From contig NZ_JAJUBC010000028.1 of the NCBI RefSeq assembly GCF_028683095.1, forward strand, positions 1 through 64,000: a DNA stretch of 64,000 bases, read 5' to 3'. Positions within the stretch are counted from its first letter, which is position 1; every line of letters starts with the position of its first letter. This document shows positions 4,916 through 19,353 of the stretch, in pieces. Origin of the DNA: Enterovibrio gelatinilyticus. GTDB lineage: Bacteria > Pseudomonadota > Gammaproteobacteria > Enterobacterales > Vibrionaceae. The notes beneath the pieces are model-generated. The model was given only the letters and a program-made list of their open reading frames with translations. It was not told the origin of the DNA and made no database searches. The position numbers and the translations under genes were made by a program.

Positions 4916-7900
4916 TTAATTGCCTCCTTGGCTGTTACCACCAAAGCGGGCAACATGTTGGTTCAGCATGGCGAGCTGTTGTACTACTTGTCCTGCACGG
5001 TCTTCGGAATCACCCATCATTTGTTGGCGTTGATATCCGTCAGTGATTTCCTGCCAACGTCCTTGTTGTTCCGGTGTCATATCACCACGCAGTTCAGCAA
5101 GTTTCAGCAGGTTTTCTTCCGTACCCGCCGCCAATGTCTGGGCTTCACCTTGATAGTGATCTTGCAGCATGGTGTTGAGTTCTTCATCGGTCATGACTGA
5201 CGATATTTTCTCGGCAAGTTTGTTCATGTTTCGATAAGAACCCTGCAGCTTAAACGGTGGCTCAACACGATACTGATCCGCCGTAGCGGCGGATTTGATG
5301 TACTGCTGATTCACCTTGAGCACGGTTTGCTGTGCCATCATCATTTTTTGCAGCGTAGAGACAATCTCATTGGATTCGGTCGCCGAATACGAATGGCTCA
5401 TGTCACTCAGTGCAATGCTCTCCCCTTCTGCCATGCGAACAAAGCGGTAAAGGTCATTCAAGTCTCTGGTCGCTAGCGGTGCAAGTACAGAATTCGACGT
5501 CAGAGAGTTCTCAATGAAGCTGAGTTCGAACGCTTGCTTCTGATCAGACAGCATGTCACCAAGGTTGTAGATATCTGCACGGTTCGACAACATATCCGGA
5601 ATTCGGAACGCTTCACCGGTTTCGGTATACGGGTTACCCGCCATCACAACCGCGAACTTCTTGCCACGCATGTCATAGGTTTTGGTTTTGCCTTTCCACG
5701 TACCTTCAATGCGACGTGTTCCATCACACAGTGAAATGAATTTCTGAAGAAATTCAGGGTGGGTGTGCTGAATATCATCAAGATACAAGAGCACGTTGTT
5801 ACCCATTTCAAAGGCGAGGTTAATTTTTTCGATTTCGCGCGCGGCGTTTTGATCAGGCGCATCAGCAGGATCAAGTGAGGTGGCTTGGTGCCCAATAGAC
5901 GGGCCATTGATCTTCATAAACACCAAGCCAAGCTTGTGTGCTACGTATTCGATCAAGGTGGTTTTACCGTAACCCGGCGGCGAAATCAGTAGCAGCATCC
6001 CCATCAAATCGGTGCGTTTCTTATCACCCATGGTGCCCATCTGTTTGGCAAAGTTATCGCCAATCAATGGCAGATAGCTTTCGCTGATGAGTTTGTTTCG
6101 AACAAAGGATGTGAGAGGACGAGGTTTGAATTCCCCGAGTCGGAAATCATCTTTCGCGGTATTAAGGAGCTCTGTGCGTTGATTGAGGTAAGCATCAAAC
6201 TGCGGAACCACCGCAGTTCTGTGATGCTCGTTACGCTGAATAAAATCATCTAACACCAGTGTTAACTGACCTTTTTCAATGCGATCATGCTCACCCAATA
6301 AGCCGTCAATGCTGCAAAGCAGCGAGAAGTCGACACTGCCGATGGAGAAATTAGAACATGATTTCAACACAGTGATGGTCGCGGCTTCCAGAACAAACGC
6401 TTCGCCATACTGCTTACGAGACGTATAAGCAGTCAACCATTGTTTGTGATCAGCAAACGCTGTTTCAATGGCTTCATCAGCTTGATGCCAACCCAGGCTG
6501 CGACGAAACTGAAGGTAGTCTTCACAAAGTGTTAGGGCATCCTGACTGACTTCAATGTTGAGTTCACTCTGACCCAGTAAGTTCACCAGATACTCTGCAG
6601 CCTCATTCGCTTGTTCAGCCTCGAGTAACGCCACCAGCTGAGTTTGCAACAGTTGATAAGCCTCTGACGAATTCAAATGTTCACGCAATAGCTGCGCATT
6701 GATGGCTTGTTGACGATAATGTTCCACTATTTGGCTATCTTGAGCGAGCAACCACAGCAACGCAGAGGAACGGGCTGATTGGCTGAATCGTAGCAATCCC
6801 GCTTGCTGGTAGATAGGTAACACTTTGTCCAAAATACGAATGGCATCGTTGTCGTGAATACCTTTCACATAACCTTCTTTGTAGCGAGGTGCAGCGAATT
6901 TTTGTATGCACTCACTCAACGTGCCTTCTTTTTGATCGGCATAGAGCTTATCGAGACTCAACCCATCGGTATTGAGTTCAGCACCGTGCAGGATCAAGTA
7001 CGCCAAATATTCTGCGCGATACACGTCTTCGCTTTCTGATGCCACATCCAAACGGGACATAGATTGGAGCGTTAGGAAGGTTTCATCTTCAACAGATTGG
7101 TAAAAATCCGTACCCGAAATGTGCGTAGACAATTGACCGTCATGGTCAACAAGACTGAGATCGAGCGGCTGTTGATTCACACTAAAACGGTGCTTACCAA
7201 GACGAAGGACTTTACCTCCCTGCTCGAAGATATCCTGATTGTCACGCAGCGAACGCAAAGACTGATCCTGCAGTGACTTGATCTTCGAATCGACACTGTC
7301 AGCCTTCACACTGTCACCCAACTCTCGAATCGTTGTCGACAGTTGATGCAGTTTCAGCACCATTGCATCTGTTGCGAAGTAGCTGTTAAGCCCCGCCACA
7401 TCATCAAAGCGTTCAACGCGCTTTTCGATGCTCGACATGGTGACGTTAGCAGCTTGCAGAAGGTTCTGAATACGACGCTGTTGAGCCGCAATCAATTGCT
7501 GTTTGTGATTATCGAGCGTTGATTGAATTTCATCTCGTTTGGCATAAATTTCAGCGAGAAACTGGTCAAAGTCAGCAAAACGAGATTCAAGCTTGTCCAA
7601 TTGACCAACCAGTTTCGCTAGCTGATTGTCACAGTCGTCAGGACTTGTTGCCTGCTCCATCGCACTGCTAACAGATTGACTAAGCAACTTAAACTGCGCA
7701 CTGAATTCAGCTTGCGCTTCTTCACTTTGAAGGCCTTTAGACTTACCACGAAGTTTCGCGGAGACAGTATTGAGCATTGACGACACTTCCGTCGTCAAAT
7801 CTAAAATCCGTGTCGCTTGTGTCGGGTCATCCGTTTCAATATCCGTGACTTCTTCCGTCACCAATTGAAGTTCGCTTCTTAGCGTTTCAACCTGATCTTG

Positions 7901-12982: not shown

Positions 12983-13070
12983 TGGCGGTGAGTGAGAGAT
13001 TCGAACTCTCGATACGTTGCCGTATACACACTTTCCAGGCGTGCTCCTTCAGCCACTCGGACAACTCACC
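12983..13070 (-). tRNA. serX: tRNA-Ser (anticodon GGA), second copy, 88/88 identical to the copy at 2691-2778
   Basis: Identical 88-nt sequence. The upstream block (gacttatcgtctcaacgg…aactatag) is conserved with the copy-1 upstream block (gacttgtcgtctcaacgg…tactataag), likely the promoter region. Confidence 0.93.
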
Positions 13071-15605: not shown

Positions 15606-15652
15606 AAAAAATGCCCTCATCCAGAAATGGCATGAGGGCATTTTCGTTTTTT
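15606..15652. terminator. Bidirectional rho-independent terminator between convergent dbpA and the DUF336 gene
   Basis: atgccctcat-ccagaaatggc-atgagggcat 10-bp stem, followed by ttttcgtttttt. It is A-rich on the other side. Confidence 0.75.
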
Positions 15653-15668: not shown

Positions 15669-16166
15669 TTATTTGCTGACTTTCTTAATTGCTGCTTCTG
15701 CACATGCTACGTCTAAATGACCGCCTGGGGCACCTCCCACACCAATAGCACCAACAACCGCACCTTTCACTGTCAATGGCAAACCACCCGCAAGTAGCAA
15801 TAGGTTGTCATCCATGTTCTGCAGAGGTTGTAAGATGGGCTTTTCGTCAATGAGCTTCATCAGTTTACCTGTTGGCTGTTTCATACTCGCCGCAGTGAAT
15901 GCTTTCTGACGAGAGCTCTCAAGCGTATGTGAACCTGCTTTATCGTCACGTAACTGCGCTAGCACACGCCCAGCCGGGTCTACAACGGTCGCTGTCACTG
16001 CGTAACCCTCTTTTTGACACTGTTCAACAGCTTTCACAGCAAGCGCTAATGCTGAATCTGTTGATAAAGAAGGGACACTAACAGTGTCGATTTTTGCTTG
16101 TGCAGAAAAAGTGGTAAAAAGCGCCGTACCAAGAACGAACGTACACATTTGGGTTGCTGATTTCAT
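15669..16166 (-). CDS. Secreted DUF336 (GlcG/HbpS-like, haem-binding/haem-degrading) protein
   Basis: Signal peptide, then the conserved C-terminal block LAGGLPL…GAIGVGGAPGGHLDVACAEAAI typical of DUF336/HbpS. A GGAG SD is present. Confidence 0.7.
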   Translation of the reverse strand: MKSATQMCTFVLGTALFTTFSAQAKIDTVSVPSLSTDSALALAVKAVEQCQKEGYAVTATVVDPAGRVLAQLRDDKAGSHTLESSRQKAFTAASMKQPTGKLMKLIDEKPILQPLQNMDDNLLLLAGGLPLTVKGAVVGAIGVGGAPGGHLDVACAEAAIKKVSK

Positions 16167-16320
16167 ACCTAAATCTCCATGAGTTCATCATATTGCTCGC
16201 AACACAATCTAACTCCCCCAAATTGCCCCATACTTTCATAAACATTACACCTTAGTAATGAACGCCAAATCCCATGTTCACTTTGGTAAGTTACGGAGAA
16301 CACAGCAAAGGAGACAACCA

Positions 16321-17001
16321 TTGAATCTACTGATCGTGGAAGATGATGTTCACATTCAGCGCTTCTTAACCCAAGGTTTCGAGCAGGAAGGATGCACGGT
16401 GACGTTGGCAAGTTCAGGCAATGAAGGGCTGTATTACGCCACTCATGATCAATTTGATGTGGTCATTTTAGACATCATGCTGCCAGAAATGGATGGCTTA
16501 GAAATGCTTCGCCAATTGAGAGGACAAGGGTTTATCGTTCCTGTCATTATTCTCAGTGCCAAACATTCAGTGGAAGAAAGAGTGAGCGGGCTCCAATGTG
16601 GTGCTGATGACTATCTAGTGAAGCCCTTTGCGTTTACCGAATTGCTCGCGCGCTGCCACACAGTGACTCGACGTGCGCAACCTGACAATGCCATTTCGAC
16701 CCAATTACATTACGACGACCTGCAATTAGACATCATCAAGAGAGAACTCATCAGGGCCAACCTCGCTATCCCCCTCAACAAACGGGAATATGCTCTCACA
16801 GAACTCTTTCTACGCAACCCCGAAAGAGTACTGTCGAAAACCGTTATCTTGGAACAAATTTGGGGGTATCAGTTCGACCCTCAAACCAATGTTGTAGATG
16901 TATTGGTGTGTAGATTGCGATCTAAGGTTGATAAAGATTTTAAGCTCCCTCTTATTCACACCATTAGAGGGGTTGGCTATGTCCTCAGAAAAGAGTGTTA
17001 G
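16321..17001 (+). CDS. OmpR/PhoB-family DNA-binding response regulator
   Basis: Receiver domain (LLIVEDD…D…ILDIMLP…K) plus a winged-helix trans_reg_C. The most likely start is TTG 16321, 7 nt after an AGGAGA SD. The ORF-track ATG 16258 would add a 21-aa N-terminal extension (MNAKSHVHFGKLRRTQQRRQP). The 3' end overlaps the kinase gene start. Confidence 0.8.
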   Translation: MNLLIVEDDVHIQRFLTQGFEQEGCTVTLASSGNEGLYYATHDQFDVVILDIMLPEMDGLEMLRQLRGQGFIVPVIILSAKHSVEERVSGLQCGADDYLVKPFAFTELLARCHTVTRRAQPDNAISTQLHYDDLQLDIIKRELIRANLAIPLNKREYALTELFLRNPERVLSKTVILEQIWGYQFDPQTNVVDVLVCRLRSKVDKDFKLPLIHTIRGVGYVLRKEC

Positions 17002-18445
17002 GAACGCTCTGACACAAACACAAAAGGCGCTTTTTTTTCGTTTTGTCGCAGTATTGCTGACCTGCTTGCTCATCGTACAAATGGTTATCGCAGTCTTGTT
17101 GCTCTATAGGATGCATAGTAATGACATCAAAATTCTTTCTTCTATGGGTGCAGAATACCAACGTATATTGACCTTTAATGGCGCCGAAAAATTAACCCAT
17201 GTGGTAGTAGCAAACCCTGAAAGGCTTCAAGAAAACAACATAACGGTGTTGAAACAAGATGTACCAAACACCACGACTTTTCACTCGGTGTCAGGTGCGG
17301 AATTAACCCCAACCGTATCAGCGTTGACTGCTTTTTCCACTAAGATCTCCAACGCTAAGTCTTCTGTACCCAACAATGAATTATCAGATACTGAAAATTG
17401 GTATCAGCAACTGATAACCGAGTCCTTTCTAACGGTGCCTTTGGTCGCCAAAGACCAAGGTTACATTATGGTGCAGCCCACTTTTTCCAATTTAGATACG
17501 GTTATCAATGAATGGTATCGAATAGGGCTTGCACTACTCGTGTTGGCCACCATCAGTCTTTTATTTGTTTGGCGACTTATCCATTCTACGCTATCTCCGT
17601 TGTTTATCTTGGCACGGCAACTTGATGACGCTAGTCAAAGCCCTCTGGAGAGTATGAGCGATACCTTGAACTTGGCGAAACAGGCCAACAAGAACGATCT
17701 TTCCAGTATCAACCGTAGCGTGAATTTATTGCTAATTCGGCTGCACAAAGTAATCAAAAGCATGGATGACACGGTAAATGCCATTGCACACGACCTGAGA
17801 ACGCCACTGTCCCGTCTGAGGCTGTCTGCTGAGAAAGGATTACTCACAGACACAGAGAGTGAGAATAGCGCTGTAGTAATGAAAGACGCCTTAGCCGACT
17901 GTTTAGAATCATCCAATCAAACCGATCAAATGCTTACTACCTTACTGAAAATCAATGATGAAGTCGCAGGACGCCTTACTCCCAAGCTTTCTCAAGTGGA
18001 TATCAATGCAACGTTGACGAAAGTTGCTGGTTGGTACGAGGAAACAGCGGAGGACCAATGCATTCAATTAGATGTTATAAAAAACGCGTCTTCAACTTTA
18101 CTAACCGATGAGGAAAAGCTCATCCAGATATTGGTTAACCTTATTGATAACGCCCTAAAGTTCACACCGAAAGGTGGCAAGATTCAATTGGCTTATTACG
18201 AGAGAAATGGCTTTGGCAGTATTGCAGTAACGGACTCTGGCATTGGCATTCAAGAAGACAAACACGCTTTAATTTTCAAGAAACTCTATCGTGCCGATGA
18301 AAGCAGAACAACTGAGGGCTACGGTCTAGGGCTCGCCCATGCTATGGCTATTGCAGAAAGTTTAGGTGGGCAATTGACGGTTGATTCAACAGTCGGCAAA
18401 GGCAGTACCTTCACGATTCGTTTAACACGAAATACGTCGCAATAA
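16979..18445 (+). CDS. Sensor histidine kinase with a periplasmic sensor domain between two TM helices
   Basis: HisKA H-box AIAHDLRTPLSRL. HATPase_c N/G boxes (LIDNALKFTP, DSGIGI, GYGLGLAHA). Likely ATG at 16979 (MSSEKSV…), overlapping the response-regulator stop. The ORF-track start 16898 lies inside the response-regulator gene. Confidence 0.8.
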   Translation: MSSEKSVRNALTQTQKALFFRFVAVLLTCLLIVQMVIAVLLLYRMHSNDIKILSSMGAEYQRILTFNGAEKLTHVVVANPERLQENNITVLKQDVPNTTTFHSVSGAELTPTVSALTAFSTKISNAKSSVPNNELSDTENWYQQLITESFLTVPLVAKDQGYIMVQPTFSNLDTVINEWYRIGLALLVLATISLLFVWRLIHSTLSPLFILARQLDDASQSPLESMSDTLNLAKQANKNDLSSINRSVNLLLIRLHKVIKSMDDTVNAIAHDLRTPLSRLRLSAEKGLLTDTESENSAVVMKDALADCLESSNQTDQMLTTLLKINDEVAGRLTPKLSQVDINATLTKVAGWYEETAEDQCIQLDVIKNASSTLLTDEEKLIQILVNLIDNALKFTPKGGKIQLAYYERNGFGSIAVTDSGIGIQEDKHALIFKKLYRADESRTTEGYGLGLAHAMAIAESLGGQLTVDSTVGKGSTFTIRLTRNTSQ

Positions 18446-18489: not shown

Positions 18490-19353
18490 TCAGCGGGTGG
18501 AGCGAGCGGCGCAGGTATTCCTGCGGCTCATCACAATCAAGATAATCGCAGGGATGTTCATCAAAATGCCGTATAAGAGAGGCGTCAGCGCCAATTGCGG
18601 CTGATTGAGTTGAACCACAGCAACGAATATCGCCGTACCAGCATTTTGAATACCCACTTCAATGGATAGTGTTTTCGACAATGTCGTGTCACCGCCCAAC
18701 CCTTTCGCAACGACCACTCCCAACGCCATGCCGAGAAAACAAAGAAGGAGCACCGCGATAGAGGCGACGGAAAAGAGTTGATTAAACACTTTCGTGTTCG
18801 CTGCCAGGGTAATTGCCACAGTAAAAAAGAGTGCCCATAACGCCGTGCGACCAGCAAACTGAGCAAATCGCTCAAAGCCTGCCGACGAACAATAGTGCTT
18901 AATCGCCATCCCAAGCAACACAGGCAATAAAGTCACCGCTATAAGCTGCAGGATAGCTGTCTTCAAAGGAATAATGGCTGAAACATCAGACAACACAAAT
19001 GGCAGCATTAAAGGCAAGCTAAACGGAATGATCAAACTACTGATCGCCGTCATCGTTATGGAGAGTGCAGAGTCCCCGCCACAAAGGTGACAGATAGCAT
19101 TTGACGATGCACCGCCAGGCGCCAACGCCAATATCCAAAGCCCTACCGCGACCACCTCAGGCAGGTTAAATAATTGAATCAAGCAATACGCTATGCTGGG
19201 TAAACCAATGAGCTGCGCTGACAAGCCTGCAGCCACTTTACCGGGGAATTGGGAAACACGCTTAAAATCCGCCACAGTGAGAGTTAACCCCACACAGAAC
19301 ATCATCCACGCAAGCGCAACGGGCAAGCCAATGGTGAGCATGGTTTGGCTCAT
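18490..19353 (-). CDS. Bile acid:sodium symporter (BASS/SBF) family transporter
   Basis: 287 aa polytopic membrane protein with BASS-like conserved stretches (…GLWILALAPGGASSN…, …IEVGIQNAGTA…). Confidence 0.7.
   Translation of the reverse strand: MSQTMLTIGLPVALAWMMFCVGLTLTVADFKRVSQFPGKVAAGLSAQLIGLPSIAYCLIQLFNLPEVVAVGLWILALAPGGASSNAICHLCGGDSALSITMTAISSLIIPFSLPLMLPFVLSDVSAIIPLKTAILQLIAVTLLPVLLGMAIKHYCSSAGFERFAQFAGRTALWALFFTVAITLAANTKVFNQLFSVASIAVLLLCFLGMALGVVVAKGLGGDTTLSKTLSIEVGIQNAGTAIFVAVVQLNQPQLALTPLLYGILMNIPAIILIVMSRRNTCAARSTR

Follow-up and report, generated by a model that had tools for sequence, protein, structure and literature searches.

To our knowledge, the HbpS-SenS-SenR system of Streptomyces is the only DUF336-dependent signalling system to have been studied. 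Like the locus that is the subject of this paper, it comprises an exported DUF336 protein that is encoded beside a membrane kinase and a response regulator (in S. reticuli, and in S. coelicolor as SCO4274-4276). HbpS is an exported, octameric protein that inhibits the autophosphorylation of SenS in unstressed cells and, when iron or haem gives rise to oxidative stress, activates it (PMC3184428); according to the title of a 2005 paper (cited in PMC8153426), the production of HbpS is in turn modulated by SenS/SenR. The group that works on HbpS has stated that clustering with senS-senR is confined to the hbpS-like genes of actinobacteria (PMC4991794), and whilst a homologue from Vibrio sp. MED222 was included in an alignment by the HbpS authors, a kinase neighbour was not mentioned. 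Our literature searches found no described Vibrio or Gram-negative DUF336 two-component system. Here we analyse positions 15669-18445 of a 64-kb stretch of the Enterovibrio gelatinilyticus contig NZ_JAJUBC010000028.1 (the full 64 kb is referred to as the window), where a gene for an exported DUF336 protein lies head-to-head with the genes for an OmpR-type response regulator and a two-transmembrane sensor kinase, from which it is separated by a spacer of 154 bp (Table 1). The evidence set out below identifies this trio as an undescribed variant of the accessory-protein two-component systems, and not as a homologue of SenS/SenR.

Accessory proteins of this kind are known from other families too. 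CpxP and ZraP are small periplasmic proteins that are encoded divergently from their own two-component systems, are induced by them and feed back on them. CpxP-CpxAR and ZraP-ZraSR share with the trio both the gene architecture and the predicted circuit logic (a small, exported protein that is divergently encoded and regulator dependent), but CpxP and ZraP are helical LTXXQ-motif proteins whereas DUF336 proteins have an alpha/beta fold, and there is no homology between the two. In the LuxP-LuxQ system a periplasmic partner docks on a PDC-type kinase sensor, although the PDC of LuxQ is a tandem one and LuxP belongs to the periplasmic binding proteins, unrelated to DUF336. A further comparison is provided by HprSR (also called YedVW or HypVW) and its paralogue CusSR: HprR and CusR share a recognition sequence, and each regulates a single target, to which it is divergently adjacent (PMC8249747). 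In the divergent hprRS-hiuH spacer of Escherichia coli an experimentally defined YedW/HprR box is found 87-70 bp before hiuH (bioRxiv 10.1101/2021.09.09.459708; PMC8249747), and MsrP, a regulated periplasmic product, feeds back on HprS (bioRxiv 10.1101/2021.09.09.459708).

A conserved three-gene cassette in marine Gammaproteobacteria

The three genes form one conserved, self-contained signalling cassette in marine Gammaproteobacteria. A scan seeded with the DUF336 protein, with one genome taken per species, yielded 80 loci, to which four loci from exact look-ups were added; the loci were compared by tblastn with the regulator, the kinase, the kinase sensor region and the neighbouring BASS transporter of the window. 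Wherever the DUF336 protein was at least 61% identical to that of the window (21 of 21 loci), a divergent regulator gene (57-93% identical) was found 155-418 bp away and was followed by the kinase gene; these loci belong to Enterovibrio, Grimontia, about ten Vibrio species, five Photobacterium, Endozoicomonas, Marinomonas and a Nitrincolaceae metagenome-assembled genome (MAG). The same layout is seen at eight more distant loci from Oceanospirillum, Amphritea, Endozoicomonas arenosclerae, Oleiphilus and Motiliproteus, so that a divergent regulator-kinase pair accompanies the DUF336 gene at 29 of 29 related gammaproteobacterial loci.

The reverse scan, in which metagenomes were searched with an alignment of the kinase sensor domain, was blind to DUF336. 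It returned 16 loci, two of which are cut by contig ends and are uninformative, and at all of the 14 informative loci the same divergent place is taken by a DUF336 gene (66-74% identical). The arrangement was also present in all three genomes that were chosen for their kinase orthologue (V. splendidus, V. cortegadensis and Photobacterium sp. BZF1). Kinase orthologues without a DUF336 neighbour were thus sought, and there were none among the 17 informative kinase-seeded loci; with both seeds taken together, the layout of the trio is found in 46 of 46 informative loci. The suggestion of a preliminary description of this DNA that the three genes are a functional unit is therefore borne out, both by the synteny obtained from the two seeds and by the conserved box that faces the DUF336 gene (see below).

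When all neighbouring open reading frames of the loci were clustered, no fourth conserved gene was found, and the flanks vary from locus to locus. The pairwise distances of the three proteins are correlated (r=0.85-0.94), which argues that the trio is inherited as a unit. One copy of the cassette is on a contig that, according to its record title, is V. europaeus p251-like plasmid (L022), and that of V. campbellii (L001, CP026322.1) is on a 1.96-Mb replicon. Its presence on secondary replicons, together with the unrelated flanks across species, suggests that the cassette moves horizontally as a unit.

The divergent spacer contains a conserved, putative regulator box

The head-to-head layout is as given in the preliminary description, other than that the spacer is 154 bp and not 155 bp long. 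The longest open reading frame for the regulator begins at 16258, a position that is overlapped by the regulator box; the TTG codon at 16321 is preceded at a distance of 7 nt by AAGGAG (16308-16313), and regulator orthologues are 224-226 aa in length. Given the AAGGAG spacing, the length of the orthologues and the overlap of the box with 16258, the true start is almost certainly the TTG, and it is this start that defines the spacer.

The palindromic box CATTAC-N6-GTAATG (CATTACACCTTAGTAATG) precedes the ATG of the DUF336 gene by 94-77 bp and the TTG of the regulator gene by 61 bp, and is the only perfect match to ATTAC-N6-GTAAT in the window. Each of the 44 loci that have a complete spacer (window included) carries the box there, with 0-2 mismatches. 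Across 559 kb of sequence from the loci, 31 perfect boxes were found in spacers and only one independent site was found elsewhere. The latter (ATTACACTCGCGTAAT), seen at 1143 in L087 and 1912 in L089, which are overlapping metagenome contigs, is about 1.8 kb past the far end of the DUF336 gene and may indicate a further target gene in the organism concerned. In most loci the box is 77±3 bp away from the ATG of the DUF336 gene, whilst its separation from the start of the regulator varies between 51 and 182 bp.

A conservation profile of 42 distinct spacers anchored on the box gave the consensus aAc ATTaCaa.ttTGTAAT GtT...GaAAG..t...GtAAT...g.....gttA, with a mean information content of 0.76 bits on the DUF336 side of the box versus 0.38 bits on the regulator side. 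The two half-site-like pentamers on the DUF336 side, GAAAG and GCAAT, are located 11 and 22 bp past the proximal GTAAT and overlap the -35 region; the information content of the profile is close to 2 bits at these positions, and the pentamers can be seen in every locus. The -10-like hexamer TAGATT (a TAnnnT element) matches the conserved gttA...tg that other loci have at an equal distance from the box; no good -35 element was found in the promoter that faces the DUF336 gene. Phased direct half-sites that run into the -35 region are what is expected of a promoter activated by a regulator of the OmpR/PhoB family. The DUF336 gene is thus very probably a direct target of the regulator, as judged from the sequence of the spacer; regulation of the gene by something unrelated was looked for, and what faces it instead is the conserved regulator-type box with its phased half-sites and -10-like element.

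In E. coli the YedW/HprR box of the hprR-hiuH spacer (CATTACAAAATTGTAATG) is identical to CATTACACCTTAGTAATG in half-sites and in spacing, and hiuH has a GTAAG at the same +22 offset as the third half-site of the cassette. The distances to the divergent target are likewise comparable, at 94-77 bp in the cassette and 87-70 bp for hiuH. The predicted regulatory wiring is HprSR/CusSR-like, with the exported DUF336 protein apparently replacing the targets of those systems, which are HiuH-MsrPQ for HprSR and the CusCFBA efflux pump for CusSR.

The regulator and the kinase

The domains of the regulator (Table 1) agree with its earlier description as OmpR-type. Its best NCBIfam families are TIGR01387 (242.9 bits; cutoff 279.2), CusR (213.7; 420) and HprR (203.3; 353), all of which it matches below the curated cutoff, and it is 43% identical to E. 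coli HprR. By sequence it is assigned to the CusR/CopR/HprR clade of the OmpR family.

The kinase gene begins with an ATG at 16979 (MSS..., as in all orthologues), giving a 23-nt overlap with the end of the regulator gene, and appears to be translationally coupled to it. The protein is 99% identical to one of E. makurazakiensis, and its best NCBIfam family is TIGR01386 at 143.6 bits, which does not reach the cutoff of 292.55. Two hydrophobic segments (TM1, ~18-43; TM2, ~179-201) enclose a periplasmic domain of ~135 aa (residues ~44-177; 17108-17509), in keeping with the large periplasmic loop noted previously. This sensor domain looks PDC/Cache-like. Its conserved residues are few and are mostly found just past TM1 (S55, M56 at >=90% and E59-Y60-Q61-R62), with H74-V75, N86, G106 and W141 further along; no His/Met cluster of the CusS kind is apparent among them, and the only invariant candidates for metal ligands are E59 and H74. 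Between the sensor domains of the cassette kinase and HprS there is no detectable sequence similarity, since BLAST aligns the two kinases only from residue 178 onward (24% identity), and the conserved HprS residues Met72 and Met153 have no mapped counterparts. Most, but not all, Vibrionaceae-type orthologues have a cysteine in TM1 (C29), which recalls the transmembrane Cys165 of HprS (bioRxiv 10.1101/2021.09.09.459708).

The exported DUF336 protein

The DUF336 protein matches the HbpS-like family PF03928 over the full length of the profile (positions 1-127 of 128; E=4.7e-31; 107.9 bits, the cutoff being 25). PF03928 is the sole Pfam match, and no homology to the LTXXQ-motif proteins (CpxP/ZraP/Spy) was detected. 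The N-terminus (MKSATQMCTFVLGTALFTTFSAQA, then K) has a Sec-type layout with a signal peptide of about residues 1-24 (16095-16166); it contains neither a twin-arginine motif nor a lipobox cysteine, and the RR motif is also absent from the orthologues, the N-termini of which are as hydrophobic but variable. The protein is thus predicted to be exported by a Sec-type, signal-peptide-like N-terminus, so that two features given in the preliminary description stand: the signal peptide and the conserved block GAIGVGGAPGGHLDVACAEAA, which occupies residues 139-159 and is nearly invariant in the clade. The protein is 100% identical to one of Enterovibrio sp. ZSDZ42.

The nearest solved relatives by sequence are 4nkp (1.8e-24), a putative extracellular haem-binding protein, and Streptomyces HbpS (3fpv; 5.9e-22). 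An AlphaFold2 (AF2) model of the protein (predicted local distance difference test, pLDDT, 81, with residues 1-17 below 50 and the first 30 residues averaging below 60) was compared with 4nkp and HbpS (3fpv, 3fpw), giving target-normalised template modelling (TM) scores of 0.84-0.91 at 39-41% identity; for HbpS the values are 0.84 and 40%. The identities to EfgA, PduOC and OrfY in the structure comparison were 25-27%. The signature residues of the clade are C50, Y55, H80, K88, H150, D152 and C155. Of about 205 clade sequences that were compared, 201 have cysteine at both C50 and C155; H80, H150 and Y55 are conserved as well. In the AF2 model the first helix spans 36-52, with C50 two residues short of its end, and the last helix spans 149-163, with C155 in its second turn. 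As the first and last helices pack antiparallel in the DUF336 fold (PMC4923194), a C50/C155 disulfide or redox pair is plausible on the model. The ligands of the DUF336 family are diverse and include haem, cobalamin and formaldehyde (PMC8153426, PMC4923194).

Comparison with HbpS-SenS-SenR

HbpS carries a Tat signal (PMC8153426), whereas the cassette protein is Sec-type. The K83-D143 pair of HbpS is kept as K88 and D152, and D141 is replaced by H150, as the HbpS authors noted for Gram-negative homologues. The tightest iron motif of HbpS, E78xxE81, corresponds to E83..R86, with E83 being E or D across the clade; K108, which is needed for haem-dependent activation of SenS, is Q113; and Thr113 of HbpS, which we take to be a haem-binding or haem-related position, is L122. 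Because E81, K108 and the presumed haem position T113 are not conserved, haem sensing is unsupported; the haem sensing put forward in the preliminary description, and iron sensing likewise, are left with the family name as their basis.

Homology of the kinase-regulator pair to SenS/SenR was not upheld. SenR belongs to the NarL family and its gene follows that of the kinase (PMC9739842), whereas the cassette has an OmpR-family regulator, the order regulator-kinase and a two-transmembrane PDC-type sensor, which argues that the two-component systems are not homologous partners; the comparison covers the regulator family and gene order published for SenS/SenR and the features of the cassette. Two apparent precedents from the literature were discarded: MSMEG_0243/0244/0246 was not used, MSMEG_0243 being described as a homologue of Rv0203 in a paper that makes no mention of DUF336, and the 'DUF336' of a 2026 preprint proved to be the first part of DUF3365.

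Proposed mechanism and alternative explanations

In the mechanism that we propose, the kinase would respond through its PDC/Cache-like periplasmic sensor by phosphorylating the HprR/CusR/CopR-clade regulator. The regulator would then bind CATTAC-N6-GTAATG and the neighbouring phased half-sites in the spacer, and would activate the divergent DUF336 promoter and probably its own operon too. The DUF336 protein would be the single conserved, and probably the principal, output; it would act in the periplasm on the same stress, and it probably feeds back on the periplasmic domain of the kinase or removes the stimulus. Feedback is proposed because of the action of HbpS on SenS, CpxP on CpxA, ZraP on ZraS and MsrP on HprS. 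The signal would most likely be a periplasmic oxidative/redox or metal-linked stress, with haem as one candidate; the hints of oxidative stress are indirect and come from the HprSR-like wiring, the conserved periplasmic Met, the Cys pair, and the MsrA/MsrB and ankyrin neighbours seen in other taxa. The parts of this proposal differ in strength. That the three genes make up a single regulatory module, of which the DUF336 gene is a direct target, is highly likely, and an autonomous envelope-signalling cassette is, on balance, the probable and best explanation of the whole. Modulation of the kinase by the DUF336 protein is suggested tentatively, by analogy, and we put it at somewhat under an even chance, whilst haem or iron is an unlikely signal.

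A number of points weigh against this proposal. Binding of the regulator is deduced from the box and from protein similarity, and the nature of the signal from analogy and from contexts in other taxa. Mirror-tree and partial-Mantel analyses found no specific co-evolution of the DUF336 protein with the sensor domain (partial r 0.15-0.21, versus 0.48 for the DUF336 protein and the regulator). The sensor domain is the fastest-evolving part of the cassette (57% mean difference) and the DUF336 protein the slowest (27%), which is unlike the prediction for a large conserved interface, and a PDC/Cache-like sensor could bind a ligand by itself. In addition, about 40 Nitrospira loci encode a DUF336 protein that is 47-60% identical and have no OmpR-type two-component system, from which it follows that the protein has a kinase-independent function.

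Several of these points would be accommodated if the kinase sensed alone and the DUF336 protein were an induced periplasmic effector, protective or enzymatic, that leaves the kinase unaffected, in the way that hiuH-msrPQ serves HprSR or cusCFBA serves CusSR. The promoter is built like that of a target gene activated by a regulator, as for the single-target regulators HprR and CusR with their divergent adjacent targets (PMC8249747). The existence of the DUF336 clade without a two-component system in Nitrospira, the lack of specific co-evolution and a sensor fold that is typical of direct ligand sensors are all in line with an output-only role. Such a role is nevertheless rather unlikely in our view, as periplasmic products encoded beside their own two-component systems often feed back (MsrP and HbpS, and from general knowledge CpxP and ZraP), and as the same DUF336 clade is co-transcribed downstream of another kinase-regulator pair in other Proteobacteria, as accessory components typically are. 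At the opposite extreme, the cassette might be a true HbpS-type sensor, in which haem or iron is bound or degraded by the DUF336 protein, which as the primary sensor turns the kinase on when haem or iron causes oxidative stress. HbpS is among the two closest solved relatives and is exported as the cassette protein is, and its K83 and D143 are retained in the latter as K88 and D152; the linkage to a two-component system is strict, and the kinase sensor has no conserved metal-ligand set. We nonetheless regard an HbpS-type sensor as improbable given the different two-component family (OmpR-type, not NarL-type), the exchanges at E81, K108 and the presumed haem residue Thr113, the Sec-type export, the missing co-evolution signal with the sensor domain and the variety of DUF336 ligands.

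A CopRS/CusRS-type system for Cu/Ag or another heavy metal, with the DUF336 protein as a periplasmic metal-binding protein, can also be envisaged, since in NCBIfam the pair scores best against heavy-metal subfamilies of regulators and kinases, the box is common to CusR, the exported protein has invariant H80, H150, C50 and C155, and HbpS binds iron. However, both proteins are well below the TIGR01386/TIGR01387 cutoffs and metal efflux or oxidase genes are linked in no examined locus, and we consider a metal system very unlikely. As to whether the genes are merely chance neighbours with unrelated functions, DUF336 genes do occur in many contexts, but the layout is retained at every one of the informative loci while the flanks change, and the box in the spacer is conserved; chance adjacency is effectively refuted by these two observations, and its probability is negligible. 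We therefore retain the envelope-signalling cassette described above as the preferred explanation.

Genomic neighbourhood of the trio

The coordinates of the trio, its regulatory elements and other features are collected in Table 1.

Table 1. Features of the cassette and its surroundings, and DUF336 loci of other types. Positions refer to the window unless a locus handle (L) is given.
Feature	Position	Strand	Basis or remark
Exported DUF336 (GlcG/HbpS family, PF03928) protein, 165 aa	15669..16166	-	Pfam, PDB sequence matches, AF2, conservation
-10-like hexamer TAGATT facing the DUF336 gene (putative)	16206..16211	-	42-spacer profile and sequence; inferred
Two half-site-like pentamers, GAAAG (16233-16237) and GCAAT/GTAAT (16222-16226)	16222..16237	-	Conservation profile
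Palindromic regulator box CATTACACCTTAGTAATG (CATTAC-N6-GTAATG)	16243..16260	.	Sequence search, locus comparison
OmpR-type response regulator, 226 aa, TTG start	16321..17001	+	Pfam Response_reg (PF00072) and Trans_reg_C (PF00486)
Sensor histidine kinase, 488 aa, HisKA/HATPase_c, H-box AIAHDLRTPL	16979..18445	+	Pfam
Bidirectional intrinsic-terminator-like hairpin TGCCCTCAT...ATGAGGGCA, with A-run/T-run flanks	15606..15652	.	Sequence reading
BASS/SBF transporter	18490-19353	-	Convergent with the kinase
FixJ-type DUF336 module	L045 5631-9794; also L048, L057, L058, L067, L072, L073, L075, L079, L082	one strand	Kinase H-box HELNQPL
Nitrospira ankyrin-linked DUF336	L005 5227-5907; L053, L055, L059, L060, L063, L064, L066, L085 (~7200-7900)		

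On its downstream side the DUF336 gene is convergent with dbpA (named from its Pfam DEAD/Helicase_C/DbpA matches), and the terminator-like hairpin that lies between the two genes suggests that the DUF336 gene is monocistronic. At the other end of the trio, a BASS-family transporter gene does adjoin the kinase gene as previously reported, but its inclusion in the module was not substantiated. Its position beside the trio is kept only in Enterovibrio (94% identity in E. baiacu) and the search of the window found no regulator box upstream of it, and the transporter was consequently rejected as a fourth component. Vibrio sp. S9_S30 has another member of the BASS family, 29% identical, at the equivalent position (L007 4786-5553), which is probably a coincidence.

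Elsewhere in the window, a scan with Rfam gathering thresholds gave no match, although ARAGORN finds two tRNA genes there. These are identical tRNA-Ser(GGA) genes (2691-2778 and 12983-13070, both on the - strand) that enclose about 10 kb encoding a TelA-like protein, a PLD-like nuclease with weak DrmC/MkoC matches, a 1626-aa DUF3686/DUF7902/AAA_5 ATPase and two proteins of 696 and 204 aa without a Pfam match. The segment 2691-13070 looks like an island at a duplicated tRNA gene, and is possibly a defence candidate.

Other two-component systems linked to exported DUF336 proteins

A second type of linkage was found at ten loci, where the genes for a kinase that has a large periplasmic domain, for a regulator of the FixJ/NarL type and for an exported DUF336 protein all lie on one strand (Table 1). 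These loci come from Pseudomonas, Rubrivivax, Hydrogenophaga, Sphaerotilus, Rhizobium and three MAGs, one of which is labelled Synechococcus. The module is followed in Pseudomonas by convergent genes for exported MsrA and MsrB, and in betaproteobacteria by a gene for an exported ankyrin-repeat protein, neighbours that fit a recurrent role in signalling or oxidative stress. The sensor domains of the OmpR-type and FixJ-type kinases are unrelated (hhalign probability 0.3%), and a sensor domain common to both DUF336-linked kinase types was rejected on this value. In many Nitrospira loci the DUF336 orthologue is encoded directly downstream of an ankyrin-repeat protein that is 36-40% identical to the betaproteobacterial one; in one of these (L005) a 1604-aa hybrid PAS kinase is encoded on the other side of the DUF336 gene.

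The exported DUF336 clade is thus linked to three families of two-component system: the NarL-type SenSR of actinobacteria, the FixJ-type operon of Pseudomonas, betaproteobacteria and Rhizobium, and the HprR-type divergent cassette of Vibrionaceae and Oceanospirillales. Because three different families are involved, the C50/H80/H150/C155 clade may be seen as a portable extracytoplasmic redox or ligand co-sensor that has been captured independently at least three times; it would then be the true sensor of envelope oxidants in the cassette and would reset or activate the kinase, with the periplasmic domain of the kinase as a mere docking platform. We regard this as a speculative and fairly unlikely reading.

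Significance

The locus defines a second DUF336 signalling cassette, Gram-negative and with a kinase and regulator of another family. The cassette is widespread, being found in Vibrio, Photobacterium, Enterovibrio, Grimontia, Marinomonas, Endozoicomonas and Oceanospirillales, groups with oyster and fish pathogens among their members. The predicted operator and promoter are precise enough for the circuit to be directly testable. A function would follow for an abundant annotation, 'haem-binding protein', that is given by homology only, and the cassette would reveal whether partnership with kinases in the periplasm is general among DUF336 proteins.

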